Shown piece after piece: positions 3,004 to 61,800 of a stretch of 64,000 nt of DNA. The number at the start of each line of letters is the position of its first letter. The stretch's first letter is position 1. The notes under the pieces were generated by a model, which worked only from the letters and a program-made list of their open reading frames with translations, did not search any database and was not told where the DNA came from. This stretch comes from Candidatus Nomurabacteria bacterium (GTDB lineage: Bacteria; Patescibacteriota; Minisyncoccia; Phycocordibacterales; UBA918). Position numbers and translations under genes: made by a program. The DNA is taken from NCBI GenBank assembly GCA_023898585.1, contig CP060229.1, forward strand, positions 381,912 to 445,911, in the 5' to 3' direction.

Positions 3004-3006
3004 TCT

Positions 3007-3621: not shown

Positions 3622-3622
3622 G

Positions 3623-6397: not shown

Positions 6398-6533
6398 TTC
6401 TCCCGTCCTTTCGGAACGAGAAGTTTCTGAATCTGCCCCTCGATTTATTTAGATGGAACCAAATTGAGGAAGAATTGAGAGGGTTGTTGGATGTAAAGGA
6501 GGTTGTAAACACCCAATTTGCTATACTTAACTA

Positions 6534-8655: not shown

Positions 8656-8832
8656 CATCAGTGATTTTTCAAAACTTGGAACCACAAAAACACCCTCAAG
8701 AATAATTTAAATATCTCACTCTCTATTTTTGTGCCTCTGAAAGGTACCCCTTCGGGCCGGAGACAAGCTTATAAACTTGCTGTCCCTTCGATTCCTGACG
8801 AGAGCAAAGCAGTTTGCTCTCTGTAGGGGCAC

Positions 8833-8860: not shown

Positions 8861-8873
8861 CATTTTGTACTCG

Positions 8874-8945
8874 CGCCCCTACCAGGAATCGAACCCAGAT
8901 CAACGGCTTAGAAGTCCGCAGTTTTATCCATTAAACTATAGGGGC
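8874..8945 (-). tRNA. tRNA-Arg (anticodon TCT)
   Basis: Manual fold. Acceptor GCCCCTA/TAGGGGC, D arm GTTT/AAAC, anticodon loop cTTCTAa, T arm GGTTCGATTCC. One A:G mismatch at 31:39. Confidence 0.65.
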
Positions 8946-13604: not shown

Positions 13605-13747
13605 GAATCACTAAGTATATTTCTGCACTTCGTGAGAAATCTACTAAGTGTTCTCGACCCCGGCTCATCTGTTTTCTTCGCTAGGAAAGGCGAAAAAAAC
13701 ATGACTCCGCCTCGCACCAAGGTGCGCAAGCAAAGCAGTTTGCTTGC

Positions 13748-13790
13748 TATAAGAAAAACCACTGGATTGACTCCAGTGATTTTTCTTATA
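13748..13790 (-). terminator. long hairpin (~19-bp stem, loop ttgac) flanked by A-run/U-run, immediately 3' of tRNA-Val
   Basis: tataagaaaaaccactgga / tccagtgatttttcttata. The single mismatch becomes a G:U pair on the minus-strand RNA. U-rich tail. Confidence 0.6.
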
Positions 13791-34391: not shown

Positions 34392-34677
34392 GTTTCTATA
34401 ATATTTAAGGAAAAACTGAAAAAGGTGGATACACTTCTAAAGAAAGGTTTACTCATGCGGGATGAACGGTACAAAATAAATGAAAGGTTCAACCTATCTT
34501 TGCAGTAACCCGACAAATAGGGACAGGGACAATAGAATCTTAAATCACTTGGCATAATATTTTATACCCCGGCCACTAACACTGTATCCTTGATTGGAGG
34601 AGGAGACAGTTAGGCTGATGATCTCGAGTATACACTGCATGTAATAGGGAGTCCAAAGAACAATCAGAACACACTTT

Positions 34678-34754
34678 TACCTAGAGTATTGTCCCTGTCC
34701 CCATTTCCTTTACCTAGAGTATTGTCCCTGTCCCCATTTCCTGTCCCCATTTCC
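34678..34754. repeat. tandem repeat (2.4 copies of a 32/33-bp unit tacctagagtattgtccctgtccccatttcct)
   Basis: Units at 34678-34709 and 34711-34742 plus the partial gtccccatttcc. An inverted copy of the core (gggacagggacaa) lies at ~34518-34531. Confidence 0.8.
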
Positions 34755-36992: not shown

Positions 36993-37108
36993 TATTTTGT
37001 ACGAGAGGATAGTTCTAAATTCCCATTAGTGTCCATTTGGCTAGAAATGAAATGATTAGGAATTACAAAGCTATTTGGTTTCAATTACCGTTTGGGCACT
37101 TACTGTCC

Positions 37109-37177
37109 ATGGGGTGGAACCAGTTTGAGGAAATTTGTTTGGAGTGGTTGGAGGAGGCGAGGGAGGTGCTTGTATAA
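37109..37177 (+). CDS. candidate conserved small ORF (22 aa, MGWNQFEEICLEWLEEAREVLV); a paralogous copy ends at 38769
   Basis: Two copies differ mostly by synonymous or conservative codon changes, but both lack a clear SD. A cis-element explanation is equally possible. Confidence 0.25.
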   Translation: MGWNQFEEICLEWLEEAREVLV

Positions 37178-37181
37178 AAAA

Positions 37182-37212
37182 CCGCGTCCTTTGCCATAAG
37201 CTAGGGACGCGG
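37182..37212 (-). terminator. hairpin ccgcgtcc/ggacgcgg plus U6 on minus strand, directly after the 449-aa gene
   Basis: 8-bp GC stem, 15-nt loop. The minus-strand RNA is followed by UUUUUU. Confidence 0.55.
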
Positions 37213-37223
37213 CATTTACCTCA

Positions 37224-38573
37224 TTATTCGACGTTAAGGAGTTGCATCATTCGATCATAGTCGTTTTCCAGCACTTTTTCCTTGATGGGTCGGTGCGTTG
37301 GGTCAACTTCCACGCGATAACCTTGTACGAGACATGTCTCTCGACTTCCGACACCGTTGGTAAAGTCGGGTTCGCCCACCAGTGCATACGCATTTGCACT
37401 CTTGGGGAGTACAGCCTCCACTTCCTTGCGATCGTAGCGAAAGATCGGAACAGGGTAGTTCGAATCGGTATAGAATCGTACCGCTTCTCCCACCTGTTGC
37501 ATGGATTTCACCAGGAACTCTGGTTCGTACGTATCAGCCCGAGCACCTTTCTTTGGCACTTGTGTGAACCAGGTCTCATCCGGCAGTTGCATGAGCACCA
37601 TGAGGCCTCCTGGCGCTTGGTCGAGTCCGGTTGGCTCCATGAGTTCACGCCAGTGCTTTAGTAGCAACTTGCGTGCATCAGGACCTTTGCGGATTTCACC
37701 AGCATCACCCTCACGGACGCCAAACATGCGTGTTCCATCACCCCATCCATGGGGTCCAATGTCACACGACCAGGTTGGGAGACGACCATAGTCATTGCCC
37801 TGGACTTGGGAAATCGCGCCGATACTCAACAGGTGGGCAAAGGCAAAACCTTCTTCCACCTCCTGGTATACGTAGCTACAGCTTGCATCACCAGGTTGGA
37901 TGATGTATGGGTTCATCGGACCACTGCTCGGATCATACGCGTGATGCTTCTTGTAGAACTCGATTGCCAGCCTTGCGTGCTCGGTCAAATATTCAGAAGC
38001 CCGAGGACCGAGTCGTGCACGCAGCACCGGATCGACAAATGCTTCCACAGCCGAAAGGATTGAGAGGAAAGGGTACTGGTACCGACGAAGGTATGTCTCC
38101 AGTTCCACCACCTCGACCGGACCATAGTGTCCACTTTCGAGTTTGTGGAACTCGTCGATCGTGATGCGACCACCTTCTCGTCCGCGAGTCTTGTCGCTTG
38201 TTTGCCACTTGTAGGCGTCGACAACACCACGTTCGGTTGCCATCGGGCCAACGCCGTGGGCAACGAGTAGGATCTTGATGCCACCTTTGCTCATCCCTAC
38301 GTACTCGGCAGACATCGTGGTGAAGTACTGATCCCACGGGGTCGGGTTGGAAGGGTCGTAGCCATTCAGGTGTTTCGGCGGAGTTGCAAGCCGTGCATCG
38401 ACCACGTCAAGCATGGTGCCGACATGACCTTTGTCTCCAGCGAATCTGGAAGCTTGCCGGAAGGATGGCACGAAGCCATCCATGTGGAAGAAGCTCATAG
38501 CTTCACCAGTTGCGGTTTTTTCAGACATTAGTAGTCTCCTTGTTTCCGTTTTTGGATTTGAAGGAACGGACAA
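37224..38573 (-). CDS. hypothetical protein (449 aa) in GC-rich island
   Basis: Long ORF in a locally GC-rich stretch, with many spurious antisense ORFs on the + strand. No family recognised by eye. Confidence 0.6.
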   Translation of the reverse strand: MSVPSNPKTETRRLLMSEKTATGEAMSFFHMDGFVPSFRQASRFAGDKGHVGTMLDVVDARLATPPKHLNGYDPSNPTPWDQYFTTMSAEYVGMSKGGIKILLVAHGVGPMATERGVVDAYKWQTSDKTRGREGGRITIDEFHKLESGHYGPVEVVELETYLRRYQYPFLSILSAVEAFVDPVLRARLGPRASEYLTEHARLAIEFYKKHHAYDPSSGPMNPYIIQPGDASCSYVYQEVEEGFAFAHLLSIGAISQVQGNDYGRLPTWSCDIGPHGWGDGTRMFGVREGDAGEIRKGPDARKLLLKHWRELMEPTGLDQAPGGLMVLMQLPDETWFTQVPKKGARADTYEPEFLVKSMQQVGEAVRFYTDSNYPVPIFRYDRKEVEAVLPKSANAYALVGEPDFTNGVGSRETCLVQGYRVEVDPTHRPIKEKVLENDYDRMMQLLNVE

Positions 38574-38773
38574 TGTGTCCGGCGAAACAATACAATATAA
38601 AGATTTATTTGTCTACATTAAAAAAGTCCATAGTGGAACTAAAAAGTCATTATTTTATTCTGTTTCCCAGATATCTAGGACAGTAGGGCACGTACTGTCT
38701 CTCGGGTGGAACCAGTTTGAGGAATTGTGTATTGAATGGCTTGAAGAAGCGAGAGTAATTTTTGTATGAAAAA

Positions 38774-38826
38774 GCCACCCTTCCGCCGAAACGAAAGGGT
38801 CGCTTTCAGTTTCGTGGTTGGGTGGC
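38774..38826 (-). terminator. hairpin gccaccc...gggtggc plus U5 on minus strand, directly after the 116-aa gene
   Basis: 7-bp outer stem with structured loop. The minus-strand RNA is followed by UUUUU. Confidence 0.4.
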
Positions 38827-38827
38827 G

Positions 38828-39178
38828 TCAGTCAGGGCGGCGGCCTTCTTTCCAGCCACCGCATATGGACTTGTAACCAGGCGGGAACGCCTCGTTGAAC
38901 GTGTGACCACCGTGTTCTTCCAGGGCGCGTTGGACTTCCCAGCACACTTCGTCCCGCTGTTCTTCGGTCATGTTGATGAACTGCATGGTGTAGACTCGCG
39001 CCATTGCGTGAATGTCGGGCGACGTTTCGATACTGGGGTCAGTCAGGAAGTTGACGGTAGTGGTGTCGAGTCGCTCGAAGCTCCACCGTTTCTGAAATGC
39101 TGTCTGTACAGCGTGGCGAATGGCTTTCATCTGCGGTACTTCGTCCGCAGTGAAACCGGTCACATCGACAATAGGCAT
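38828..39178 (-). CDS. hypothetical protein (116 aa), possibly tautomerase-superfamily-like (Met-Pro start)
   Basis: MPIVDVTGF... with Pro at position 2, ~116 aa. GC-rich codon usage. Family assignment is weak. Confidence 0.3.
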   Translation of the reverse strand: MPIVDVTGFTADEVPQMKAIRHAVQTAFQKRWSFERLDTTTVNFLTDPSIETSPDIHAMARVYTMQFINMTEEQRDEVCWEVQRALEEHGGHTFNEAFPPGYKSICGGWKEGRRPD

Positions 39179-39189
39179 CGTGTCCTCCT

Positions 39190-39723
39190 TCAGGCCAGGA
39201 AGTTCCGGCCGTCGAGCTTGTCATTGCTGTTTTCGAATGCGTAACGACCGAGCGCCTTGAGTGAGTCAGCGGTCATCCCGGAGATGAGCTGGTCAATACA
39301 CGGTTTTTCGCCCGAGAAGCCGACCACCAGTCCGTGTCGTTTGACGCCGCCCCAGTAGGGCGTGTCGCCCGAGAACAGCAGGTGAGCGTTCGAATCGGTC
39401 TGCCCGTCATCGTTGCGTCCCTGCCAGAGCTGGAGCGCCTTGCAACGGGCGATGTCGTCGAACGGGTACTCCCAGTTATCCTTTTCACCCACGCTCTCTT
39501 CATAGAGCAAGTGCGGGTAAATCGGGTAGTTGGGCCAGTCGGGGTAGTCTTCCGATCGCACGTCGTCCATCGACGGAACGAGGATGACGAGATGACCTTG
39601 GCGACGCTTCATGGCGTCGGCGTAAGGGCCTTCTTCGGCGAATAGTGTGACCGAAAACACCTGCTTGGCCACCTGGGCGGCCAGTTGCGGGGTGAGGTAC
39701 TTGGGGGTGAGCAATTGGCTCAT
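39190..39723 (-). CDS. GlcG/DUF336-family protein
   Basis: GGVKRHGLVVGFSGEKPCIDQLISG resembles the DUF336 core motif. The likely start is the Met at 39723 (the ORF-track frame extends to 39816). Confidence 0.5.
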   Translation of the reverse strand: MSQLLTPKYLTPQLAAQVAKQVFSVTLFAEEGPYADAMKRRQGHLVILVPSMDDVRSEDYPDWPNYPIYPHLLYEESVGEKDNWEYPFDDIARCKALQLWQGRNDDGQTDSNAHLLFSGDTPYWGGVKRHGLVVGFSGEKPCIDQLISGMTADSLKALGRYAFENSNDKLDGRNFLA

Positions 39724-39879
39724 GTCGTTTCTCCACTTGGTTGCGAATTGTGATTGCCGAAATGGCGGGAACTTGTAGATCGTAGTGATCCATAAGCTGG
39801 CAAAAAAGTATAGCAAAAGTCAATTTTTGTAAATACTAACTCGACATTAGTGAAACTAGAATCTTCTGTCTGACCTGGG

Positions 39880-41634
39880 CTATGCAGAGATTTTTTCCTC
39901 TATGATGCTCTTCAAATCAGCAACGTCGTCGCTAACGTATGATTCTGGTAGGTGAGAAGCAGATTCAATTTCGACTTTTGCTTCCTCGTACTTTTTATTG
40001 TCTAAGTAGTGTCGAGCTTTTTCGTAATGCCATATTTGAGAGGCAATATTTTTATTTTTAGTTGATGCAAAGCGTTCTATGGCTTTTGTGTAGTACGCAT
40101 CTCCTTTGTTATTTTTGCCAGTTCGGAAACAAAGCAGTCCTTTTGTTGCTGAAAGTGATGGTGGCAGCTCATCGTCTTTATACTTTTTGAGGATATCCTC
40201 AGCTTTTTTAAAATGTCCGCCTAAAATGTAAGCGTGAGCTAGGTTGTTTTCAATGTAAGGCATGTCAAAACCAAGCTCTAGTGCACCTTCAAGTAGTTTT
40301 ATTGACGCTTCGTAATCCTTGTCTAGTGAAGAAAGTATAAAACTATAGTCAGGGTAAACTTCACGGATGCGAGGTTCTATTTCTAGAGATTTCTCGAAAT
40401 AAGTTTTTGCATTGTCGTATTGCTTCATCCTCCCTAGGTATGCTCCTCTTAGGTAAAAACCAAAAGCATCCTCTGGGTGAATGCGTAATATGAAGTCGGC
40501 TGTTTCTTTTAGTTTATCTAAGTCGTCTCTGTCAACGGCTGATCTCCCTATGTTGTAAGATGATTTTAGGTGATCAATTTTGATATTAAGATTGCGCTTG
40601 CCGGAGATGTGTTTTTTGAATAAAGAGGCAGCTTTTTCGAAACAAGCGTCACCTTGAGTGTTCAGACCAACTGATTTATAGCAAACTCCAAGATTGTTGT
40701 ATAAAAGATCGTTGTTTTTCTCTTCTTGTATCTTCTTTTGGTACCAGGGTATCGCTTCTTCGAAGTTTCTTAGCTCCATTAGTAGCCAACCAATCTTATG
40801 CTCCCAAACGTGGTCGAGTATCAACTGACTATGTTTTGCCTTTACGAGTGTTTCTAAGGCTTCAGCGTATTTTTTTCCGTTCACGTACAGATAGGCCAGG
40901 TTTTGATAACTGTGTATATATCTAGGATCTATTTCAATAACACTCTTGAAAAGACCTTCCGCATCTCCAGGGTTGCCAGACCGTAGATGGGCCACCCCAA
41001 GGTTATTTATCGCGTGTATATAACGGTTATTTATAGATCTTGATCTTTCAAAATACGTTACTGAACCTTCTATGTCTTTCTTAAGGTTTAGGAGTATAAA
41101 CCCATGAGTGTTGATAACTTCGTAGTCTGCTGGATCTTTTTGTTCAGCTTCATTTAAAACGCTGATGGCTTCCTCTACATCACGATTTTTTTCATCTATT
41201 AAAGCTTTAAAAATGGCATACTTATGCAAAATATCTGGGCGACGATTGGTAACTTCTAGTACCTTCCTGAAAAATAGGTTTGCTTGGTCGATGTCCTTGT
41301 GTGATATGCATGCAAAGAGTATTTTTTCGTATGCCGGTAAATGGTCAGGTTTTAAATCTATCGCCATTAGGAAGTAGGTGATAGCACGTTTGTAATTACC
41401 TTTCATTAGGTACAGATCGCCAACCTGCATTAGAGTCTGTGGTGCCTCGCGTTCACTAAGTCTTTTCTTGGCGAACCTCATTTGCTCATTTATGAACTTA
41501 TGTTTAAACTTGTGTCCGAAAGAGTTGACGGGAGAAGCGTCTGTAGAGGAAATAGGAGTATGAGTTGGTCGTGATTTTGCAGCACCAATAACCGGTTCGA
41601 TGTAATCGTTGGTATTTTGGGTCTGAGTAATCAT
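39880..41634 (-). CDS. TPR-repeat protein (584 aa)
   Basis: Multiple 34-residue TPR-like repeats (W/LG/Y...A...F...A...P patterns). 4-bp overlap with the upstream kinase gene. Confidence 0.7.
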   Translation of the reverse strand: MITQTQNTNDYIEPVIGAAKSRPTHTPISSTDASPVNSFGHKFKHKFINEQMRFAKKRLSEREAPQTLMQVGDLYLMKGNYKRAITYFLMAIDLKPDHLPAYEKILFACISHKDIDQANLFFRKVLEVTNRRPDILHKYAIFKALIDEKNRDVEEAISVLNEAEQKDPADYEVINTHGFILLNLKKDIEGSVTYFERSRSINNRYIHAINNLGVAHLRSGNPGDAEGLFKSVIEIDPRYIHSYQNLAYLYVNGKKYAEALETLVKAKHSQLILDHVWEHKIGWLLMELRNFEEAIPWYQKKIQEEKNNDLLYNNLGVCYKSVGLNTQGDACFEKAASLFKKHISGKRNLNIKIDHLKSSYNIGRSAVDRDDLDKLKETADFILRIHPEDAFGFYLRGAYLGRMKQYDNAKTYFEKSLEIEPRIREVYPDYSFILSSLDKDYEASIKLLEGALELGFDMPYIENNLAHAYILGGHFKKAEDILKKYKDDELPPSLSATKGLLCFRTGKNNKGDAYYTKAIERFASTKNKNIASQIWHYEKARHYLDNKKYEEAKVEIESASHLPESYVSDDVADLKSIIEEKISA

Positions 41635-42608
41635 ATGTTGAGTTTGTCTAAATCTGCTTCCAGTTCCTCGATGCTATTGTATCTTCTGGAATGGTCGATA
41701 TCACAGAGCTTTTCAATGATTTTGTTAATCTCCTGGGTTAGTTGGTAATCTACCAGAGATACGTGTAAGTTTGAGTAGTCGAGATTTCTTCTTGTTTCAA
41801 GCCACTTGCTATAAAACTGTTCTCTTTCGGTATAGGTTTTTCCGTTCGTGCTAAACGAGTTTTGTTGCATGTAGGTACCAATATCTCCCACAAGTTGTGA
41901 GTAATGTATTATTGGTGTTCCGTTAAATAGGAAAGATAATAAAATACCGAGAGCATAGTGATCGGTCTTTTTAGAAAGACCGATATTAGTACCGTCTGTT
42001 ATCTCAAAGAAGAGTTCGGGAGGACGTACGTATCTATGACCTACGCAAGGACGATCAAGATAATCAAGAGGCTCAAGGTTGTGATCTTTTGCTCTTCCAA
42101 AATCACACAACTTAACCTGTTGTTCGTCACCGTCAAATACTAAAACATTGTTCCACCAGAGATCTCTGTGTACTACGTCCAGTTGGTGGGCATGCTTTAC
42201 ACCAGTACATATCTTTCTGAATGTAGAGATAAGTTCAGAAGGTGTCTGATTATAGTTTTCTTTTATATGGGCATCAAGATTGCCTTGAGCAAGCTCCATC
42301 AGATAGTAGAAAAATGGACTCTCTTCCTCGTTAACACTCAAAGGAAGTATTATTTGTTCGCAATGCAAAGGTGTGTGTAGTCTGTGGAGGATGGTATTTT
42401 CTTGTTTGAAGCGGTCAATCTCTTCTTTGGGAGCGCCGTCTCTGCAGACTTTTAGAGCAATCGGCGAACCGTATTCTTCATTTTTTACCTCGTAGACAAT
42501 ACCAAAATTGCCGCCACCCAGCTCTCTAATTACAGTATTTTCTCGAATCTTTTGCCCTGTCGTTAGCATGGTAGTCGTTACTATAGGCAACACCTTTTCC
42601 GTTGTCAA
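41631..42608 (-). CDS. Ser/Thr protein kinase (Hanks-type)
   Basis: G-loop LGGGNFGIVY, VAIK-like IALKV, catalytic loop HRDLWWNNVLV, DFG (DFGRAKD). Confidence 0.8.
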   Translation of the reverse strand: MTTEKVLPIVTTTMLTTGQKIRENTVIRELGGGNFGIVYEVKNEEYGSPIALKVCRDGAPKEEIDRFKQENTILHRLHTPLHCEQIILPLSVNEEESPFFYYLMELAQGNLDAHIKENYNQTPSELISTFRKICTGVKHAHQLDVVHRDLWWNNVLVFDGDEQQVKLCDFGRAKDHNLEPLDYLDRPCVGHRYVRPPELFFEITDGTNIGLSKKTDHYALGILLSFLFNGTPIIHYSQLVGDIGTYMQQNSFSTNGKTYTEREQFYSKWLETRRNLDYSNLHVSLVDYQLTQEINKIIEKLCDIDHSRRYNSIEELEADLDKLNI

Positions 42609-42662
42609 AGATGAGTATCGAGACTAGGTTACTATCGTTCGCTCATTTTACTGTCACACCTG

Positions 42663-43034
42663 TCACTTTTCAAAGATGGATGCTACTAGTCGATCAATTC
42701 TTTCTTGATCGATCTGTTTTGCGGGCAGTTCGATTGTTTGCCTAGGAATGTCCCAGCCGTAGTTACACCGTAAATTAAACATTGCCCCAGTAACAGCCCC
42801 GCCTCTAAATAGGTGTTCTTCAGCGAATGTCTCACAGCGCTGTTTTGCTGCCTCTATCGTGTCAAAAAATTCCTCTTTTCGTGAGTAATTCAACAATGTT
42901 TGTCGTGTGACTCCGAGAAAAAGAGATAGTCCGGATATTGTATACGGTCGATCTTGTTGATCGCATAGTTGAAAATAGCCGTCCACAGCGGTCTGTAGAG
43001 CTATTTGGTTGTTGAATTTAAGTGGCCTTGACAC
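42663..43034 (-). CDS. phage terminase small subunit-like protein (HTH DNA-packaging protein)
   Basis: Pattern YTISGLSLFLGVTRQTLLNY...EFFDTIEAAKQRCE...FNLRCNYGW resembles TerS-family N-terminal domains. Confidence 0.5.
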   Translation of the reverse strand: MSRPLKFNNQIALQTAVDGYFQLCDQQDRPYTISGLSLFLGVTRQTLLNYSRKEEFFDTIEAAKQRCETFAEEHLFRGGAVTGAMFNLRCNYGWDIPRQTIELPAKQIDQERIDRLVASIFEK

Positions 43035-43049
43035 CTATGTATTTTACCA

Positions 43050-43529
43050 TCAAATACAGGCTGGGCTGGAGTAATTTATTGTTTTGCAGACATACTCTAT
43101 GCCTGCCCTAAAAGCGTATTCGGTTGTTGAGTCCATAAAATCTTCGTTCAAGTCTAGAGCTTTTTCTAGCGCCTCGCTCTGAGCCGCCTGTTTGCCATGT
43201 ATGAATCCTGCGTTATAGCGTGCTTCTCCAAACTCAGATACTGACATGCTGCCTATGTTTATATCAGTACTAGGTTGATTTTCTTCTTCCGTTTCGTACA
43301 AGGACCAAGCGTCTTCATAACCATCTTCGTAACCCACCTCTATACCTGCATCGTAACCAGACGCATATCGTTCCTTCATCTGCGCTGAAATAAATAGCCA
43401 GACTACAATTAGTGCGATTATCGTCAATATGGATATGATTATCTTTTTCATGGTTACGTCTGTATACAAAAAGCCCACTGCTAAAAGGTAGGATGTGAGT
43501 CCACATGCCCAGTTTCCCAGACATGACAC
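43050..43529 (-). CDS. hypothetical membrane-anchored protein
   Basis: The likely start is the internal Met (MKKIIISILTIIALIVVWLF). Acidic ectodomain. Confidence 0.4.
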   Translation of the reverse strand: MSCLGNWACGLTSYLLAVGFLYTDVTMKKIIISILTIIALIVVWLFISAQMKERYASGYDAGIEVGYEDGYEDAWSLYETEEENQPSTDINIGSMSVSEFGEARYNAGFIHGKQAAQSEALEKALDLNEDFMDSTTEYAFRAGIEYVCKTINYSSPACI

Positions 43530-43673
43530 AGAACGTGACCCCGTTAACAGCGGGTTCTTTATCGTTCTGTGATTAACTTATTCGCACCATGCCGCGCCTC
43601 ACGGCAGCGGGTTAGGTGACTATATTGTCTTTTAATAGTATCAGAAATAAGGGTATGATACGAGGAAATGTAA

Positions 43674-44417
43674 ATGTATATGGATGCAAAAAGGGTAAAA
43701 ACAGTATGGAGATCAGTTGTTAAAAGGATTCCTGCCGAATATGTGACTGAAACTCGGGAAAGATTGAATATTCCACCAAAGGGGTTTTTGACCTTTAAGG
43801 ACCAAGAAAAGTGGTATCAAAACGCATTAAAAGAAGTTACTGCAATGAGTCGTGGTGCCTACAAAGGGAAAAGATTAACTGAGCGGCAACGAATCGTCTT
43901 AAACAAAGCATTGGAAAAGACAGATTATGGGATTTTGCAGCAAGCGATTTCTACCATCGTAGAAAAATTTCCAGTACTAAAAGGATATGAAGATGCCGTA
44001 CGGGAAGGTTTGTTGGGCTTAATGAACGAAAAAAGTATCAATTCGGGCGATTACACTGGTTGTGAATTTGCGTATGTGACCAAAGATTCTGGAGATACAG
44101 ATTTATCTGAAGGTTTGTACATCAGGGTTTCCAGTCACACAACCAAGCAAGACATTGATGATTTTTTAACAAAGAAAAAAACTGCTTTTCAAAAGCTGAA
44201 AAAGCTTCTATATCCAGATGAGCCAATCCGTTATCAGGTTTCACCAGCAGCAGAGAGGAAAGAGATGACGAGAATTTTGCGCGACCATTCATTAGTGGAA
44301 CTTAATAAGTTGTGTAAAAAAGAGTGCGAGGAAAGGGGTGATTATGATCCCATATTGCCGACTCGAAAGGATATGGCTATTGAAAGACTTCTTAAATTTT
44401 GGGGATACAAGAAGTGA
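43674..44417 (+). CDS. hypothetical protein (247 aa), divergently transcribed
   Basis: ORF with plausible start. No domain recognised. Confidence 0.45.
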   Translation: MYMDAKRVKTVWRSVVKRIPAEYVTETRERLNIPPKGFLTFKDQEKWYQNALKEVTAMSRGAYKGKRLTERQRIVLNKALEKTDYGILQQAISTIVEKFPVLKGYEDAVREGLLGLMNEKSINSGDYTGCEFAYVTKDSGDTDLSEGLYIRVSSHTTKQDIDDFLTKKKTAFQKLKKLLYPDEPIRYQVSPAAERKEMTRILRDHSLVELNKLCKKECEERGDYDPILPTRKDMAIERLLKFWGYKK

Positions 44418-44504
44418 TCTAGTGCAGTTAAATGACCGTTTGTTAGTAAAAACTCAACTAGGGTTGGGTTTTTACTAACTCCTAATTCTTTTACGGGGAA
44501 TACT

Positions 44505-44744
44505 TTGGTCACTATGACTAATGTATATAAAACATCAGATTTAAATGAGGCGGTCGTACTTTTATGTTATGACCACAAACTAGAGTACATTGATAAAACA
44601 GAGCGGCGGGCACAATTTTGCTTTACGGAGCAATCTGATACCGCTGAAGTAATTAAGAATTATAGGCTACGTGAAATTCAGATAGAGCCACATTCCTTTT
44701 ACCAACACCAACGCGATCTAAAGGATCGTTTGTATAACGGCTAG
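44505..44744 (+). CDS. hypothetical small protein (79 aa)
   Basis: ORF immediately upstream of the primase gene. Confidence 0.4.
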   Translation: MVTMTNVYKTSDLNEAVVLLCYDHKLEYIDKTERRAQFCFTEQSDTAEVIKNYRLREIQIEPHSFYQHQRDLKDRLYNG

Positions 44745-44748
44745 GCTT

Positions 44749-47007
44749 ATGTCAGGTGTAAGTAAATTGAACAACGACAGTAGTCATTTGAATAAGTTAA
44801 AGGAAGCTGCGCTACAGTACGTAAAAGACGGCCACCCCATTGTACCTATGGGCCTCAATGGTGATACAGGGGACTATAAAAGGCCACTAGTAAGGTGGCG
44901 AGATGTAGACGGTCCGGCTCGGACAGAAAAAGCTGTAGAGAGTTTATTTTCCAAGTTTGGCAAACGAATTTTCGGAATCGCAACAATTGTTGAGCGGCAT
45001 ATCCTGGTCGATTTTGATACAGAGGATTCACACAAGTTATTTAGGCTACAACCAGCCCCAACCATTAAAACTGGCAAAGGTAGACACATGTGGTATGCCA
45101 CAACTTCTGTAGTCAAACAGAATGGGCCACTTGACTTGTCTGAACATGAAAAGAGGGACGGTAAAAAATATCAGGTAGAGATTTACACAGAAAAGCGGCT
45201 TGAAATTCTGCCACCCTCTCTACATCACTCTGGTGTGTTGTACGAATGGGAGCTGGACTATACAGATTTCTTAGATTTGTCACCTTTACCTGAAGATTTG
45301 GTCCAATTGTGTGGAATTAAAAAGGAGAAAGTTGGCCAGAAAAAAAGCGACATATTTCAAATCATCTATGAGGGTGAGCGACACAGCAAATTAAAAGAAG
45401 CTTGTTTTTACTTCTTTAATAAGCATAAAGGGAATGGAAAAAAGATAACCAAATCAGTTCTGGCCTGGAACATCGAATATTGTAATCCTCCAATAGATGA
45501 AGGTGAGGTTGGGAACATGGTCGATTGGACTATCAAAAACTTTGATGCACCTGACGGGAAGAAAGACAAAGAACCGAAACAAAGTCAGGCAGTAATTGAG
45601 TATATTGAAGAAAATAAAGCAATTACGCTATTCCACGACCAAGACAAGATTGGTTTTGCTCGCCTCAATTCACAAAAGGGAGTGAATATTCCAATTCACA
45701 GTCAAGAGTTTACTGAGTTTTTATCCCTACTCGCGTATCAATCTGACAAAAGTGTTTTAACGGATTATGTTTGTAAAGAGATTCAGTCAGTTTTACATGC
45801 CAAAGCATTGTATGAGTCTTCCCAGCACGCTCTACAACACCGAGTGTATCAGTCTGGTGAGTGTGAATTTTACTATGACCTCTGCAACGATGCTGGAGAA
45901 GCAGTAAAGATAACAAAAGACGGGTGGACTATTGAATCGGGAGAGAAAATACAGTTTCTTTTTAAGCGCGGTGCTGCAACAGAACAGCCGAGACCAGTTA
46001 AGGGTGGAAACCTAAGACAGTTTCTCGATTTTGTGAATCTCAAAGACGAAGATGAACAGATGTTGTTTTTGTGCACGCTTCCCGTGCGAATGATTCGAGA
46101 TATCGACCAGCCGATCGTTTACATCTACGGCCCAGCTGGAAGTGCAAAAACCACACTGCTTAAACTGACTAAAGACCTGCTTGACCCGTCTCAAGGTGGA
46201 ATTTCAATGCCGGTAAAAAAGCTTGAACACATCACGCCGCTTTTAAATCAGACGTGGGTGTTTGCTAATGACAACATATCTCATATTGGTGACGAGTTGT
46301 CTGACTTCTTTTGTGTAATGGCCACTGGAGCTGAAAGTGCTCGTCGCACCTTGTATAAAGACTCAGAAGTGACAGTGCATCGTGTTAAGAACCCTGCATA
46401 CATGACGGGCATCAACATTGAAGCTAGTAATAGTGACTCACTTAGCAGGTTGTTGATCTTTAAGACTGAAGCGTTGGGTAAGGGGAATCTCAAGAATAAA
46501 AATGATCTTTTTAGAAAATATCAGCAGATGAAACCACAGCTGCTGGGCTCTATTTTTGACACATTAGTAGCAGCTTCGAATGTAAAGCAGGACTTACCAC
46601 AACAGACCGAGTTCCGTATGACTGAATATGCGCTATGGGGCGCTGCATGTGCCGAGGTGCTCGGGTATGGGGCTGAAAATTTTGAAAAGGCTTTACAGAG
46701 AGCAATGAGAGCTCGGGCTTATGACGCCATCCAGTCTTCTAGCGCAGGTCGAGCGCTTTTGAAACACCTCGAAAGCAACCTTTCTTTTGAAGGGACAATG
46801 ACTCAGCTTCTAAAGACACTAAAGGATCTGTATTTTGAGGATGATTTTCATGAAAGATGGGGTGAGACTGTAGCAAACAATCCTGAATCACTAAGCAAGA
46901 AACTGCGTGAACTTGAAAATAGTCTATCAGAGATAGGCATAACCATAGATTTTAAACGAACAGCCACAGAACGATTGATTGTCATAAGTCGAGTAGAGGG
47001 GTTTTAG
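44749..47007 (+). CDS. primase-helicase replication protein (Prim-Pol N-terminal domain plus D5/P4-type P-loop NTPase)
   Basis: Prim-Pol DxD (HILVDFDTED). Walker A GPAGSAKTT in the C-terminal half. 752 aa. Confidence 0.7.
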   Translation: MSGVSKLNNDSSHLNKLKEAALQYVKDGHPIVPMGLNGDTGDYKRPLVRWRDVDGPARTEKAVESLFSKFGKRIFGIATIVERHILVDFDTEDSHKLFRLQPAPTIKTGKGRHMWYATTSVVKQNGPLDLSEHEKRDGKKYQVEIYTEKRLEILPPSLHHSGVLYEWELDYTDFLDLSPLPEDLVQLCGIKKEKVGQKKSDIFQIIYEGERHSKLKEACFYFFNKHKGNGKKITKSVLAWNIEYCNPPIDEGEVGNMVDWTIKNFDAPDGKKDKEPKQSQAVIEYIEENKAITLFHDQDKIGFARLNSQKGVNIPIHSQEFTEFLSLLAYQSDKSVLTDYVCKEIQSVLHAKALYESSQHALQHRVYQSGECEFYYDLCNDAGEAVKITKDGWTIESGEKIQFLFKRGAATEQPRPVKGGNLRQFLDFVNLKDEDEQMLFLCTLPVRMIRDIDQPIVYIYGPAGSAKTTLLKLTKDLLDPSQGGISMPVKKLEHITPLLNQTWVFANDNISHIGDELSDFFCVMATGAESARRTLYKDSEVTVHRVKNPAYMTGINIEASNSDSLSRLLIFKTEALGKGNLKNKNDLFRKYQQMKPQLLGSIFDTLVAASNVKQDLPQQTEFRMTEYALWGAACAEVLGYGAENFEKALQRAMRARAYDAIQSSSAGRALLKHLESNLSFEGTMTQLLKTLKDLYFEDDFHERWGETVANNPESLSKKLRELENSLSEIGITIDFKRTATERLIVISRVEGF

Positions 47008-47019
47008 CATTTTGGCTTA

Positions 47020-47181
47020 TGACCAGCCTCGAAACATTTAAAGAGATTCTTATAGAATGCGGTGTTTCCGTGCCAGAAGAGCAGATCGAAGTGTTTCGTG
47101 ATTTGATTGATGCGCAAGCCGATTTGATTTTAGACTCATGGCTCAAAAGTAAACATGACGGTTGTGACAGTGTAAAATAAA
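47020..47181 (+). CDS. small hypothetical ORF (53 aa) between primase and recombinase
   Basis: Unlisted ORF MTSLETFKEILIECGVSVPEEQIEVFRDLIDAQADLILDSWLKSKHDGCDSVK. Fills the intergenic gap. Confidence 0.3.
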
Positions 47182-47184
47182 CGT

Positions 47185-48933
47185 ATGCAGAAAGAACGGC
47201 CCAGGACATGTCTAGCTAGTGCACGAATCAGTAGCCAACAACAAATGGCTGGTGAGAGTCTTGATGATCAGGTGCGAGTTCTCAAAACTACCGCTGAACA
47301 TAAAGGACTTAAGATACTACCTGACGGTGAGGTAGCCGTTGAGATATTCACTGGTACAAAACGTCGTCCTGTGTACGAACAGCACATTCAGTACATCAAA
47401 GACAATCCGGGCAAGGTTGGTTACTATCTAATTCGATACATTGATCGCTTTACTCGTGGTGGTGCCTCTGTCTATCACGACATGAAAAAAGAACTTTCCG
47501 ATTTGGGAGTGATGCTCATTGATACAAACGGAATCATCCAAGAATCACGGAACATGCCGGAATTGGCTGAGATGGGTTTTGAATATGAGTGGAGTGTCGA
47601 ATCACCAAGTGACATGACTGAGGTGATGATGGCAACAACAGCCAAACAGGAACGCGACACAATTCTAAAAAGAACAATTCCTAAGCAGATTGCTTATACT
47701 CAAAAAGGATTTCAGATAGGTCGCCCTGACGATGGAATGATGAACTATCGTACTCAAGTGGGGACACAGATACGATTTGTGCAGGTCCCCGATCCAGAGC
47801 GCGCTCACTTCATAAGAAAAATATTTGAGCTACGGGCAGAGAATAAACACTCTGATCAAGAGATACTTCATATTGTGAATGAAGACATGGGGTTTCGTAC
47901 TAAAAAATTCCATCGCTGGAATAAAACCCACACAGAGATTATCGGTGAAGGAGGTGGCCACAAGCTTCATATCAAGCAGCTACAGCGCATTTATCAGCGT
48001 TTAGCGTATGCAGGTGTACTTTGCGAGAAATGGACGCACCACAAGCCAATTAAGGCGCAATGGGACGGCTTAGTATCAATTGAGCTATGGAACAAAGCAA
48101 ACCGTGGCAAGATTTTCATTAAGGAGTACGACAATGACCTGTTGGAGATTCTGTACGACTATAAAACCGAGAAGCCCGTCTATCAACGACTTCGATACAA
48201 CCCAGAGTATCCTTTCAAGTGTGTAAGTTGTCCGCAGTGCAACAAGCCACTTAAAGGCAGTGCACCACGCGGGCGCGGCGGAACATACCCACGCTATCAC
48301 TGTGAACGTGGCCACACTTCATTTACGGTCAGTCGGCAACAAATGAATCAGACTGTCGAAGCATTTTTGGACAGTGTCGATTATGACGATGATTATCTGA
48401 AAGTTTTAGAAGAAGTGCTGGTCCGTAAACTACGACAGCGACAGAAAGATATTGTGCAGGAATCAGAGAAGCTAAACGAACGAGTCACTTTATTAAAGAG
48501 CCAACAGAAGCAGGTTCTAGGTACTTTAATCTCAACTGAGAGTCCGACGGTCAAAGTCATGCTTGAGAAAGAATTGGAGACCATTGTTGCTGACATCAAA
48601 AAGGCTGAATCAATTCGTTTCTCTGTCGATCTCACTGAAGGCAATATTACTGAGTTGGTGAGCTACGCACGAAAGATAGTGGAATCACCGAAAAAAGCCT
48701 TGATAGATAAAGACAATCCACTCCGACAGAAGCAGTTATTCAAGCTTTTCTTCGAGGACCTACCAACCTATACAGAATTGGATAGTGGAACCGCTAAAAA
48801 ACGCTTTCTTTTCAATAGGAAATGTATTGTCGAGACCCCTGAAAACAGGGTGTCTAGACAGAAGGGGCGACTACTGGGAATCGAACCCAGATTTCCGGTA
48901 CCACAAACCGGCGTAATAGCCGTTATACAATAG
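47185..48933 (+). CDS. large serine recombinase (resolvase catalytic domain, recombinase domain, zinc ribbon, coiled coil)
   Basis: Catalytic ARISSQQQ (cf. YARVS..Q) and IDRFTRG. Zn-ribbon CVSCPQC...HCERGH. The last ~23 codons overlap tRNA-His on the opposite strand. Confidence 0.75.
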   Translation: MQKERPRTCLASARISSQQQMAGESLDDQVRVLKTTAEHKGLKILPDGEVAVEIFTGTKRRPVYEQHIQYIKDNPGKVGYYLIRYIDRFTRGGASVYHDMKKELSDLGVMLIDTNGIIQESRNMPELAEMGFEYEWSVESPSDMTEVMMATTAKQERDTILKRTIPKQIAYTQKGFQIGRPDDGMMNYRTQVGTQIRFVQVPDPERAHFIRKIFELRAENKHSDQEILHIVNEDMGFRTKKFHRWNKTHTEIIGEGGGHKLHIKQLQRIYQRLAYAGVLCEKWTHHKPIKAQWDGLVSIELWNKANRGKIFIKEYDNDLLEILYDYKTEKPVYQRLRYNPEYPFKCVSCPQCNKPLKGSAPRGRGGTYPRYHCERGHTSFTVSRQQMNQTVEAFLDSVDYDDDYLKVLEEVLVRKLRQRQKDIVQESEKLNERVTLLKSQQKQVLGTLISTESPTVKVMLEKELETIVADIKKAESIRFSVDLTEGNITELVSYARKIVESPKKALIDKDNPLRQKQLFKLFFEDLPTYTELDSGTAKKRFLFNRKCIVETPENRVSRQKGRLLGIEPRFPVPQTGVIAVIQ

Positions 48934-48938
48934 TCGCC
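48866..48938 (-). tRNA. tRNA-His (anticodon GTG) with encoded G-1
   Basis: Manual fold. Extra 5' G pairs with discriminator C. Anticodon loop tTGTGgt. T arm GGGTTCGATTCCC. Confidence 0.75.
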
Positions 48939-49417
48939 ATAAATCGTTCTTTTTCTTTCGAGTAATGATGAACGAGATGGTGGCAATTGTGGCACAACCA
49001 AGCCAAATTTTCAATGCTATTGTTGGAGTGGTTCTCATCAATGTGGTGAACTGCTAATACTCTAGTATCTCCAGAGTTGCATAGTTTACATTTTTTAGGA
49101 GTTTTACCTCGTGAAAGTAAGCTCCGATACGAATGATTACCCGACTTCCAATTAGGGTGCTTTTCTTGAGAGAATTCCCGATTCCTCCACTTTGTTTGGC
49201 AAGACTTGCCACAAAAGAATTTTCCACTTTTTGATCCTTTGAGAGCTTTGGGTGATTTGTATATTTCTTTGTTGCAATAAGAACAGTTTACATATTTACC
49301 AGTTCGAGATGCTTCATGTTGACAGGAGGAAGAACAGTACTTGCCCCAACCTCTCTTTAACCAAGAGGGCTTAGCGTAAAAATCAACCTTACACTTTTCG
49401 CATTGTTTTATAGGCAT
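48923..49417 (-). CDS. HNH endonuclease with N-terminal zinc-finger repeats
   Basis: C-terminal LAVHHIDENHSNNSIENLAWLCHNCH HNH motif. Multiple CxxC pairs. The 3' end overlaps the tRNA-His 5' end by 16 nt. Confidence 0.65.
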   Translation of the reverse strand: MPIKQCEKCKVDFYAKPSWLKRGWGKYCSSSCQHEASRTGKYVNCSYCNKEIYKSPKALKGSKSGKFFCGKSCQTKWRNREFSQEKHPNWKSGNHSYRSLLSRGKTPKKCKLCNSGDTRVLAVHHIDENHSNNSIENLAWLCHNCHHLVHHYSKEKERFMATIV

Positions 49418-58839: not shown

Positions 58840-61800
58840 TTGTTTACTAAAACGACCGAGTCGTATTTCTTTTCGGTAGCCGTTTCGACAGCGGTTGTTT
58901 GCTGTGTTGCTTTTCTGCTACTTACAATCGGAATAGGCTCCCAATTTGTTCCAACCGCCCACGCCGAACCCACCCCCACCATCAACTACCAAGGTAAGCT
59001 AACCGACACCAATGGCCTCGCAGTCCCTGACGGCACATACAACATGCGCTTTTGGCTACTACAAAGCGAAGCGCAAGCGACCACGAGTGCTCTTTGGACA
59101 GAATCTCTCACCGGTAGCAATAAGGTGCAAGTTACCGATGGTCTATTCTCCATCATGCTTGGTTCCACGAGCGCTCTCACTTCCGTTGACTTCAATCAAA
59201 CCCTCTACCTGGGAGTGGAGATAGGTGGTTCCACCACACCCGCTTGGGACGGTGAAATGTCACCTCGTAAACCACTCGGTACCGTCCCGGCTTCTTTCGA
59301 ATCATACAAACTAGGAGGAGTAGCTTCTTCTTCTTTCGTACGATCAGATGTAGCCGATCTAGTATCCGGTCTACTCACATTCGCTGGAGGTTTTGTCAGC
59401 TCCGCTTCGAGCACAATTACAGATTTATTGTTTAGTAGAGCTACCGGCACAACTTTGGTTGTGACAACGTTGGATGTCGGAGGTGAATCGTTCACTAGTT
59501 TAACCGGTACCGGATTACAAAATGACTCAGGTGTATTAACTATAGCCACTAGTTCTCTAAATATCGCTATTGATGAAACCACCGGAACTTTGGCGGTGGC
59601 GCGAGGGGGTACCGGTAGTACCACCCCAACAGGTTTTCTTTTTGGTAATGGAGCAGGTCTTTTAGATTCAGTCAACTTGATAACAAACAGTTACATTGAA
59701 GACGTCTATCTTAGAAATGACGGTGATGATACTACCAGTGGAAAGCTCACGATTGGTGGAGACACCAACGTATCAGATCCTAACTCCAACCTCGGTGGCT
59801 ACTTCATCAACTCCATGCCGGCCGTTACCGGTTCGACCACTCTCAATAACTTTTTCTTTGCGGGGGCGTCAAGCACCAGCTTTTCCTCTGGCGCAAATAA
59901 CTACGCTTTCGGTGAAGGTGCCCTTACCAATCTGTTGTGGGGAAGTAACAACGTTGCAATTGGTAAAAATGCTCTTTATGCCTCCAGTACGGCAGCCACC
60001 TTCTTTTCAGATAACAATGCCTTCGGTGAAGGTGCGCTTTATGCCATAACAGCTGGTGTCAACAATAACGCTTTAGGAAAAGAAACTCTGACCGCAAACA
60101 CCACTGGTTCAGGTAATAATGCCTTAGGTTATCAAGCGTTAAACTACAACATTACTGGTGGTGGTAACAACGCTTTTGGTACTTGGTCTATGGCTTTTAA
60201 CACTTCCGGTTCTGACAATAATGCTATGGGTGTTCAGTCTCTGTATAACAACACAACAGGCACATACAACAACGCCTTTGGTTACGAAGCGATGAACAAT
60301 AACACCACCGGTTCAAATAACAACGCCTTTGGACAACGAGCCCTTCGTAACGGAAACTACAGCACATACAACAACGCTTTTGGTTATCAAACCATGTTGT
60401 TTAACAGTGTCGGTGCTCACAACAACGCTCTTGGCTACGAAGCTTTGTATAGCAATACTACCGGATCACGTAACAACGCCCTCGGTTACCATACTCTATA
60501 CAACAACAACGGCACCGGCACTATCGCCATCGGCTACCAGACAGCCGACAACGCCACCGGCGTCGACCGCGGTATCTTCATCGGTTACGACATCGACGCC
60601 TTCAGTACCACCGCCGACGATCAGCTCAACATCGGTAACCTTATCTTCGGTAACAACGTCAACGGTACTGGTCAAACCATCAGCTCCGGTAACATCGGTA
60701 TCGCCACTACTTCATCTACTGCTCGCCTCACCGTCCAGTCTACCGGCACCTCCGATATCTTTAATCTCTTTGAAACGGGAGGCAGTGAAGTGTTCACGGT
60801 GTTGGAGAGTGGTAACGTTGGCATCGGCACCTCTTCACCCTTACGCCAAACTCGGCGTAGCCGGTAACCTGGTAGCAACCGGTGTCATCAACACGCAGAC
60901 TAACTCAGCCAACACTTTCGCCGGTCACCTTGACATCAACGGCACCGCCACCTCCACCTTCGCAAACGGCATCGAACTCGAAGGTGGTTGCTTCCGCGAC
61001 CAAAGTGGTACCTGCATCAGCGCTCAAGGTGACACGCAGATAGTAGTCTGCAGCAAACGACACCGACGTCAATCTCAAAGCCTACGCCGACTATGTTGCG
61101 GATGGTACGAACGACCAAGATGAAATCCAGTCTGCTATCGACTACGTCTACGCTAACGGTGGGGGAACCGTTCATCTTCTAGCCGGTACTTTCACCGTTG
61201 GTACCACTACCTACACCGACTCCGCTATCAGACTCGCTACTTTACTCAACTCATTGGACAAGGAGATGCGACCGTCATCAAACTCCGTAACAGCTTCAAC
61301 GCCAACATCTCCATCGTGCACGCGAAAAACGTCCAAGATGTTTACGTTGGACATTTGGCGGTGGATGGAAACAAGGGGAATCAGAGTGGGGGGACGAACT
61401 ATGGTGTACACCTGTACGTCACGGGTTCTAGCACGATCGAAGGAGTCTACTCCTACAACATGCACTCAGTCGGTATTAGGGCTGAAAGTTCATACTATAA
61501 CACAATTACAAATAATATCGTCCGTAACAACATTGACTCCGGTATCACCTCAGATGGAAGTAATACTATTATCAATAACTTCTCTTCAGATAACGGTACC
61601 GGTATTAGGGTTGTTGTTGGTGGACGCGAATTAGTCACCAACAATAGAATTTATGATAACACCACTGGTATTTCTGTGACTGGTTCCGCAAATACTATTT
61701 CTAACAACTACGTATACAGTAACACTGATGGCTTGAAGATAGGAACGCTAGCTGACTGGAACACTGTATCAGGCAATAAATTTGAACTGAACAGCAATTA

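Follow-up and report, generated by a model that had tools for sequence, protein, structure and literature searches.

Probable attachment junction with a severed serine integrase tail behind a repeated block beside tRNA-His in a Candidatus Nomurabacteria genome

Main finding

The 64,000-nt stretch analysed here (hereafter the window) comes from a Candidatus Nomurabacteria bacterium (contig CP060229.1) and contains an 88-nt direct repeat, the second copy of which (copy B) forms part of a long open reading frame (ORF) that has no start codon. We read copy B, at a probability of roughly 85%, as an attachment junction, with the severed tail end of a serine integrase gene in it and the ordinary terminator of a cargo gene next to it. 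The integrase is a large serine recombinase (LSR) encoded further downstream, in a gene that reads into tRNA-His. Repeats of this kind form a family arranged in arrays, they are linked to tRNA-His, their frame is continuous with that of LSR genes, the peptide that they encode is homologous to a native LSR tail, and the tails of LSR relatives switch at the same codon. The start-less ORF becomes a landmark that delimits a composite mobile island at tRNA-His (37094-48864), an island that was probably built by the LSR of the window. Coordinates of the features are collected in Table 1.

Direct repeat in the window

The two copies of the repeat (copy A, 37094-37181; copy B, 38686-38773) align without gaps at 77% identity and are its only instances in the window, in agreement with the earlier note on this DNA, which had described copy B as a duplicate of copy A. 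A 21-mer common to both (GGGTGGAACCAGTTTGAGGAA) occurs twice in the 64 kb with up to three mismatches permitted, compared with an expectation of 0.00 from shuffled sequences. Read from base 1, copy A encodes the 27 residues GHLLSMGWNQFEEICLEWLEEAREVLV and copy B (from 38686, forward strand) the 27 residues GHVLSLGWNQFEELCIEWLEEARVIFV, with the stop codon at the identical position in both. The 20 nucleotide differences between the copies fall on codon positions 3, 1 and 2 in the proportion 11:7:2, and the codon changes comprise seven synonymous ones (stop codon included) and seven replacements, most of them conservative.

Codon 6 is ATG in copy A and CTC in copy B, and the observation that copy B has no start at this position holds. 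The same is true of the observation that the copy B frame stays open for 112 codons on the forward strand (38431-38769), antisense over the start of a gene of 435 or 449 codons. This length is partly real, comprising 20 codons of an LSR remnant and the 27 codons of the tail; the remainder is a chance extension, antisense to a gene of 52% guanine-plus-cytosine (GC) content.

The remnant occupies the 60 nt directly upstream of copy B (38626-38685) and is in frame with it (VHSGTKKSLFYSVSQISRTV/GHVLSLGW..., where the slash marks the junction). It is a shortened form of the corresponding part of the intact LSR of the window (...LDSGTAKKRFLFNRKCIVETPENRVSRQK/G...), whose own tail is, for comparison, ELDSGTAKKRFLFNRKCIVETPENRVSRQK. 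The core-containing repeats are referred to below as units, those of the window as unit A and unit B. The flank type of unit B, namely an LSR remnant, recurs at loci L003, L032, L043 and L045 of the set described below, and at L022 a unit is likewise preceded by an in-frame remnant of an LSR tail (...FLFNRNCIVETLQNEEESQD/GHVLSLGW...). The upstream flank of unit A has no LSR remnant, and its left neighbour is chromosomal sequence that contains no unit; the sequence to the left of unit A appears to be native, and unit A would be the outermost junction of the tRNA-His island.

The earlier note had treated the block and the adjacent terminator as one duplicated module. The block is duplicated; the hairpins next to copies A and B are unrelated in sequence, such that the duplication is confined to the 88 nt. 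The hairpin at copy A (-19.7 kcal/mol, z = -3.4) is followed by UUUUUU. The hairpin at copy B (-28.6 kcal/mol, z = -4.8, with 0 of 200 shuffles as stable) starts 2 nt after the 116-aa ORF (38828-39178) on the same strand, is followed directly by UUUUU, and has the features of a rho-independent terminator; it is, as had been proposed, the terminator of the convergent 116-aa cargo gene, and it lies outside the repeat. The first 24 nt of this hairpin (38774-38797, gccacccttccgccgaaacgaaag) are identical at locus L018 (unit at oriented position 201), where the adjacent cargo is unrelated. Conservation within the element may thus extend to the sequence that directly follows the stop codon of the LSR.

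Recombinase gene and tRNA-His

The LSR of the window matches the Resolvase (E = 7.8e-8) and Recombinase (E = 4.9e-5) domains, and the last 66 nt of its ORF overlap tRNA-His, which is on the opposite strand. The core GGG (48865) is a codon of this ORF, and the LSR crosses the core in frame 0, which is the frame of the block. The core region, GGGC together with TACTG, is present at 37094, 38686 and 48865: the reverse complement of the window tRNA-His begins GGGGCGACTACTGGG..., compared with GGGCAC(T/G)TACTG... in the units. At loci L008 and L009 the tRNA-His reverse complement reads GGGCGACTACCGGG... and the units GGGCGACTACCGACC..., with a 12-nt identity (GGGCGACTACCG). The arrangement in the window is that of a tRNA-gene island, with the intact tRNA at one end and distal junctions (37094 and 38686) that open with the sequence of its 3' terminus; nine other loci have this layout as well.

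The antisense strand of the last codons of the LSR supplies a hairpin downstream of tRNA-His. Between tRNA-His and mscL, a 164-aa ORF with HNH_3 and TRASH-domain matches (48926-49417, reverse strand) overlaps the last few bases of the LSR ORF.

Repeat family in other genomes

A seed search with a codon-degenerate pattern for G-W-N-Q-F-E-E-x-C, in which synonymous variants were permitted, matched seven genomes, six of them Patescibacteria (Kaiser-, Nomura-, Sacchari- and Paceibacteria, and Elulimicrobium); all seven matches use identical codons despite the permitted variants. A nucleotide pattern retrieved 34 metagenome loci, and a profile derived from the block yielded 80 unit copies (66 unique) from 45 sources. 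Overall, the unit is present about 80 times across 47 loci, most of them Patescibacteria, and its arrays are situated 3' of tRNA-His. Loci carry up to six units, always on a single strand within a locus and spaced by about 0.5-2.5 kb. Conservation of the unit starts sharply at the tRNA-derived GGGC; upstream of it stand a few recurrent flank types, two of which are the sequence found directly downstream of tRNA-His at other loci. The genes between units are very diverse and mostly singletons, and include RelE/RelB pairs, a NUDIX protein, a glyoxalase and a restriction-modification pair.

tRNA-His(GTG) was identified at nine of the loci (eight of the first loci, and L045) in addition to the window, and its strand is always opposite to that of the units. 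The order of units, tRNA-His, mscL and ribonucleotide reductase (RNR) is conserved, and the cargo is unrelated between loci. An LSR was found near units in four sources. At locus L047 the LSR ORF (3006-4838) passes in frame through the unit at 4686 and is undivided. At L045, a 151-kb contig, an LSR 85% identical to that of the window reads in frame into tRNA-His, beyond which come mscL and RNR; the two units of this locus are located 7 and 9 kb upstream of the LSR, and the cargo is wholly different from that of the window.

Arrays of units in the same orientation between small and diverse cassettes, toxin-antitoxin pairs among them, together with an imperfectly palindromic two-box architecture and cassette content that changes at the units, are also features of integrons or of Xer/dif modules. 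If the units were sites of this kind for a tyrosine recombinase, their association with an LSR would be coincidental. We consider this highly unlikely: the R''/R' consensus (RYYYAAC/GTTRRRY) is absent from the units, phmmer, seeded with IntI1 and XerD, recovered no protein resembling IntI or Xer from about 320 kb of loci, it is tRNA-His and not an attI site or promoter platform that anchors the arrays, and the unit lies demonstrably within an LSR ORF.

Variants of the unit of about 138 nt flank two RelE/RelB-like toxin-antitoxin cassettes at L003 (3277-3412, 4002-4139 and 4777-4914); in these long variants the core-proximal part is duplicated around a 45-nt insert that contains TATAAAAATGGAAGTG. 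The same islands contain a second repeat family of about 160 nt (L024, 2581-2736, 4630-4785 and 10541-10710; L012, 9419-9583; L013, 3302-3477 and 5371-5526), and homology between L024 and L012 also breaks at one copy of this second family.

Certain other candidates for the origin of the repeat were rejected. An origin from a host target gene, whose 3' end would have been repeated as in the direct repeats of SCCmec at rlmH, was discarded after no full-length gene was found upstream of any first unit. A transfer-messenger RNA (tmRNA) tag, a template/variable pair of a diversity-generating retroelement, an IS200/IS605 omega-RNA and group II intron domains were set aside because tRNA-like or T-arm parts, adenine-specific mismatches, a reverse transcriptase, TnpB and Rfam matches are all absent.

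Box pairs around the core

Many units extend into GGTTCCAC-nnn-GACAGTA, the inverse of the 5' boxes TACTGTC-n6-GTGGAACC. In copy B the putative dyad arrangement is GGACAGTA-GGGCACG-TACTGTCC, with the GTGGAACC/GGTTCCAC boxes farther out, an arrangement in which the sequence does not fix the crossover dinucleotide. Copies A and B both lack the 3' partner boxes that are present in 'complete' units of 130 nt. If the box pairs are half-site motifs, these complete units are best read as elements from which the interior has been deleted.

The same boxes could be taken for the helices (TACTGTC/GACAGTA and GTGGAACC/GGTTCCAC) of a structured RNA or cis-regulatory element, for example a small RNA, a leader or an antisense regulator of the adjacent reverse-strand genes. 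RNAalifold does predict a 10-bp inner GTGGAACC/GGTTCCAC helix in the 130-nt units, with one compensatory change and with G-U pairs that are tolerated solely on the forward strand. We nevertheless regard an RNA element as extremely unlikely, given that the outer helix pairs no better within units than between units (p = 0.19), that copies A and B have no 3' partner strands at all, that variation is codon-phased, and that there is no Rfam match either at the gathering threshold or at E <= 10. The last of these results also speaks against a regulatory module, a reading weighed in the earlier note.

Coding signal in the units

Coding statistics were computed for the 52 units that could be aligned. 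The ratio of nonsynonymous to synonymous variation (pN/pS) is 0.43 in frame 0, and 1.10 and 1.58 in the other two frames; premature stops interrupt frame 0 in 5 of the 52 units and the other frames in 45 and 41. The frame 0 stop is at codon 28 in 30 copies. Synonymous divergence is 0.355 in the 13 codons adjacent to the core, compared with 0.732 in the next 13, and this halving near the core fits a protein-binding recombinase half-site that is laid over coding sequence.

A frame that is open and under constraint of a purifying type could belong to an independent small protein gene (about 22-46 aa), with the ATG at codon 6 as its start in copy A and a non-canonical codon, possibly CUG as the earlier note asked, in copy B; gene finders have also called three tiny ORFs (33-47 aa) at units. 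We give this possibility almost no credence. An in-frame start is absent from most of the 66 non-redundant copies, and the sequences upstream of the copies are unrelated, in place of the fixed, conserved start and ribosome-binding site expected of a micropeptide gene. The MK(I/L)F starts of P0002 and P0003 derive from the flank downstream of tRNA-His. Furthermore, 32 full-length LSRs have C-terminal tails that are homologous to the peptide, which is contiguous with an LSR at L047, and this homology accounts for the coding signal without independent translation. A comparison of the copy B frame with 5.8 billion proteins returned the three tiny ORFs and nothing else; the LSR tails were missed in that search because they have too few exact 5-residue words in common with the query.

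The choice between coding and regulatory interpretations, as it had been posed from the two start-codon contexts, is therefore only partly apt: the block is coding-like and the missing start matters, but neither a peptide gene nor a regulatory element finds support. Transcription of the forward strand across the block, which had been put forward as a test, is non-discriminating, as the block needs no expression where it sits.

LSR relatives and their C-terminal tails

At E <= 1e-10 the LSR of the window has 327 relatives, nearly all of which come from uncultured bacteria; the tails of the best 120 were classified. In 60 of the 120 the tail is a translation of the antisense strand of a tRNA T-arm and acceptor (e.g., ...SRQK/GRLPGIEPEFPVPQTGVITVIQ), with the tRNA-His pattern in 23 of the 60. 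In a further 32, the tail is of a native type with the motif W-N-x-x-E...W and aligns with the block peptide (e.g., P0031, GHVLSLGWNQLQNFCLGWLS; P0047, LGLEWNQFEDNIISWTEQARLLF; P0042, TPGWNPFEQEMEKWLSNAEQFL). Seven relatives stop exactly at the core G, at contig ends; the unit accounts for such breaks in assemblies. The switch between tail types takes place at one alignment column. A third class of tail (...G/RRRRGCSNCV or ...G/PGSRGCSNCV), which departs from the same split codon in P0022, P0023, P0024, P0028 and P0036, would imply integration into a different target.

Searches of phage, plasmid, IMG/VR and PDB collections found no close relatives of this LSR family; among annotated matches the best are integrases of Bacillus phages, at about 25% identity.

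Proposed mechanism

Under the proposed explanation, the attachment core GGGC, the reverse complement of the tRNA 3' terminus, would lie inside the LSR's own ORF, about 27 codons before the stop, and the box pairs would be dyad-symmetric half-site motifs of the recombinase that flank this core. In the free circular form, the ORF would consist of the LSR body, the core, and the native tail (G-H-V-L-S-L-G-W-N-Q-F-E-E...stop); for the LSR of the window, this form would have 587 aa, with GHVLSLGWNQFEELCIEWLEEARVIFV joined to residues 1-560. Integration at the extreme 3' end of tRNA-His would split the gene: the body would stay beside the tRNA and gain a 22-residue tail encoded antisense to it (48865-48930), and the core, the P' half-site and the native tail codons would be carried to the other end of the element (38686-38769). 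The predicted junction of the circle (attP, the attachment site of the free element) reads ...GTCTAGACAGAAG/GGGCACGTACTGTCTCTCGG..., or, as it may also be written, ...GGGTGTCTAGACAGAAG/GGGCACGTACTGTCTCTCGGGTGGAACC..., and the predicted restored chromosomal junction reads ...ATCTAGGACAGTA/GGGCGACTACTGGGAATCGAACCC....

Two such insertions would account for the window. Copy A would be the left end of an older element (37094-38685) that has decayed to a 435-aa cargo gene and a 20-codon LSR remnant; the present element (38686-48864, 10.2 kb) would then have inserted at tRNA-His, its left end abutting the older remnant. Copy B would be seen as a long start-less ORF because this left end came to lie against the LSR remnant at 38626-38685. 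We infer from these arrangements that the LSR catalyzed the events, that the two insertions took place in this order, and that the exchange of tails alters the activity or directionality of the recombinase.

In a different history, relics of LSR 3' ends would have multiplied within the island through homologous recombination or segmental duplication, in place of successive site-specific integrations at tRNA-His. This would be compatible with the near-identity of units over at least 40 nt, which is sufficient for homologous exchange. Between the arrays of L024 and L033, an identity of 99.6% ends within a unit, a divergence that we also count in favour of the proposed explanation; the breakpoint falls in the conserved first 53 nt or so. 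In addition, the flank types of the two units at L045 stand in the opposite order to that expected from the simplest model of sequential insertion. We judge such a spread to be very unlikely. The two copies in the window are only 77% identical, with divergence of a synonymous type, which fits independent arrival better than local duplication; the 5' boundary of conservation is sharp and falls exactly at the tRNA-derived GGGC; and the cargo on the two sides of the units is unrelated and differs in GC content.

The L045 flank order also counts against successive integration as we propose it, as do several other points. At L025 a more distant LSR enters the unit in frame +1 instead of frame 0, and the closest relative with a native tail (P0031) is only 62% identical to the LSR of the window. 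In the latter protein no Zn-ribbon domain was detected, although the domain was detected in its L025 and L031 relatives, and it has no sequence-level match in PDB. Identity between unit and tRNA in the window is short (GGGC and TACTG), such that the exact crossover dinucleotide is not resolvable from it. Neither a circular or excised form of the 38686-48864 element nor an empty tRNA-His site was observed, and two DNA patterns and one protein scan found no free (attP) forms in viral contigs. Lastly, GC content is not uniform within the proposed 10.2-kb element: it is 55% over 38686-39879 and about 40% beyond, with a drop at 39880. Exactly at this drop (55% to 39.5%), the sequence at 39843-39879 (TTAGTGAAACTAG..TGTCTGACCTGGGC) bears a weak resemblance to a core preceded by an LSR-tail remnant. 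There may be a third, very degenerate junction near 39876, in which case 38686-39879 would be a separate decayed element; the heterogeneous GC content and this possible junction make the left end of the currently active element uncertain.

Comparison with known systems

The 'suicidal' integrases of the SSV type (SSV1/SSV2, pTN3, pT26-2) have their attachment site inside the integrase ORF. The gene is therefore partitioned when the element integrates at a tRNA gene, and the ends of integrated or captured elements are marked by orphan fragments of these integrases (PMC8371274). Self-splitting integrases of this type are tyrosine recombinases and exclusively archaeal according to a 2021 review (PMC8371274). 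The LSR family described here is similar in that the site lies within the integrase ORF and the gene is partitioned, as seen from the window, L045 and L047. The SSV-type enzymes belong to Phage_integr_3, occur in hyperthermophilic archaea, and are split into large inactive N- and C-terminal halves; in the family of the window, by contrast, a serine LSR of Patescibacteria exchanges only its last 27 codons or so, and the catalytic and DNA-binding domains stay intact. With a serine-type enzyme (Resolvase and Recombinase domains) and a bacterial host, the window system falls outside the SSV type and works similarly to it.

It is possible, at what we would put somewhat below even odds, that this family is the first bacterial serine counterpart of the archaeal self-splitting integrases and, jointly with this, that the element senses its integration state through the tail swap. 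An LSR with the conserved native tail would then be made by the episomal form only, and the tail of the integrated form would be dictated by the antisense strand of the target tRNA. The swap could tune the activity, stability or directionality of the enzyme; it might, for instance, lock the element in or cause excision to require a second, intact copy. The orphan tails in tRNA-His islands would be the fossil record of this mechanism.

The large serine integrases of phages and of integrative and conjugative elements (phiC31, Bxb1, A118, TP901-1, and the type of Bacillus phage TP21-L) resemble the LSR of the window in having Resolvase and Recombinase domains and, if the box pairs are half-sites, short, dyad-symmetric attachment sites with a small core. 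Their attP lies outside the int ORF, and their targets are usually protein-coding genes. In the window family, on the other hand, the acceptor/T-arm end of a tRNA is targeted and the core is inside the ORF. A change of C-terminus upon integration is said to have been described by Broussard et al. in 2013 for cluster G and related mycobacteriophages, in which attP is located in the 3' end of the repressor gene and integration alters the C-terminus and behavior of the repressor; the repressor reportedly loses a degradation tag, and the integrase is reportedly a tyrosine recombinase.

In tandem islands at tRNA 3' ends (Islander-type islands and the tycheposons of Prochlorococcus), newcomers push older elements outward, and the island, which is hypervariable in content and conserved in position, gathers degenerate remnants, fragments of integrases and partial att repeats (10.1101/2020.12.28.424599; PMC4383910). 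The window has the same tandem organization at a tRNA, with remnants, and with primase/replication and cargo modules. The Islander and tycheposon arrays contain partial tRNA copies of tens of nucleotides and involve mostly tyrosine recombinases, whereas tRNA identity in the window family is about 4-12 nt and the conspicuous repeat is the element's own P' arm with integrase tail codons. A tandem tRNA island with remnants is already well described; the core inside the recombinase ORF is the unusual part.

A literature search of incomplete coverage returned no prior description of self-gene-splitting serine recombinases, nor of integrons, attC sites or gene cassettes in the Candidate Phyla Radiation (CPR). 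The novelty of the serine self-splitting arrangement, including its presence in Patescibacteria, is provisional.

The findings point to a widespread LSR family that has its attachment core within its own coding sequence and targets tRNA 3' ends, and the unit offers a simple signature for mapping hypervariable islands in Patescibacteria genomes. If the proposed sensing holds, the directionality or activity of a serine integrase would depend on integration state, with no need of an additional factor. Serine integrases that are naturally directed at tRNAs, with candidate attP and attB (target) sites, would also be of interest for genome engineering.

Features of the island and cargo genes

The segment at 37.1-39.9 kb has a GC content of 52-55%, inside a genome of 39-42%. 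The three island proteins encoded there (435, 116 and 177 aa) have no Pfam or NCBIfam match. The 435-aa protein has a 39%-identical homologue in the tRNA-His island of L021; apart from this homologue, no relatives of the three proteins were found beside units elsewhere, and an exact-sequence lookup of the 435-aa protein returned no record.

Table 1. Features of the tRNA-His island and its surroundings (positions in the window; element assignments follow the proposed explanation).
Feature	Position	Strand	Details
Unit A	37094-37177	+	putative att core (GGGC...), P' arm and orphaned LSR tail of 27 codons; stop TAA 37175-37177
Terminator of 435-aa cargo gene	37182-37214 (hairpin)	-	ccgcgtcc...ggacgcgg, then U6 run 37176-37181
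435-aa cargo gene of putative older, decayed element	37224-38531	-	449 aa if counted from TTG at 38573
Putative older LSR 3'-end remnant (P arm)	38626-38685	+	reads VHSGTKKSLFYSVSQISRTV; half-site motif CTAGGACAGTA at end
Unit B	38686-38769	+	putative att core, P' arm and orphaned LSR tail (GHVLSLGWNQFEELCIEWLEEARVIFV); stop TGA 38767-38769
Terminator of 116-aa cargo gene	38769-38826	-	hairpin 38774-38826, U5 38769-38773
Two cargo genes	38828-39178; 39190-39723	-	116 aa and 177 aa, respectively; in 55% GC segment
Mobile-element genes between unit B and LSR	42663-47007		gp3-like DNA-packaging protein 42663-43034 (-); two ORFs of unknown function; Prim-Pol 44749-47007 (+)
LSR gene	47185-48930	+	582 aa; Resolvase and Recombinase domains; last 22 codons (48865-48930) antisense to tRNA-His
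tRNA-His(GTG)	48864-48937	-	intact; putative integration target; core GGGC 48865-48868 (+) is its extreme 3' end

Other observations in the window

A weak third unit-like remnant is located at 6410-6500 on the forward strand (nhmmer E = 0.006), where the frame reads ...FRWNQIEEELRGLLDVKEVV...; it is 2.4 kb from tRNA-Arg(TCT) (8873-8945, reverse strand), in the same geometry as that of the units relative to tRNA-His, and may be the relic of a related LSR element at another tRNA. A palindromic motif (AGCAAAGCAGTTTGCT) occurs at 8803-8825 and 13729-13751, 50-70 nt downstream of tRNA-Arg and tRNA-Val, and is also present in the tRNA-His-adjacent flank at other loci; the motif resembles a tRNA trailer or terminator element that these genomes have in common.

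An intergenic, perfect tandem duplication of 33 nt (TTTACCTAGAGTATTGTCCCTGTCCCCATTTCC, twice) is located at 34676-34741, upstream of the gene for a 511-aa methyltransferase. At 59780-63700, large repeat-protein genes contain arrays of a 51-nt (17-residue) tandem repeat, and a segment of about 3 kb is duplicated there at 76-88% identity.

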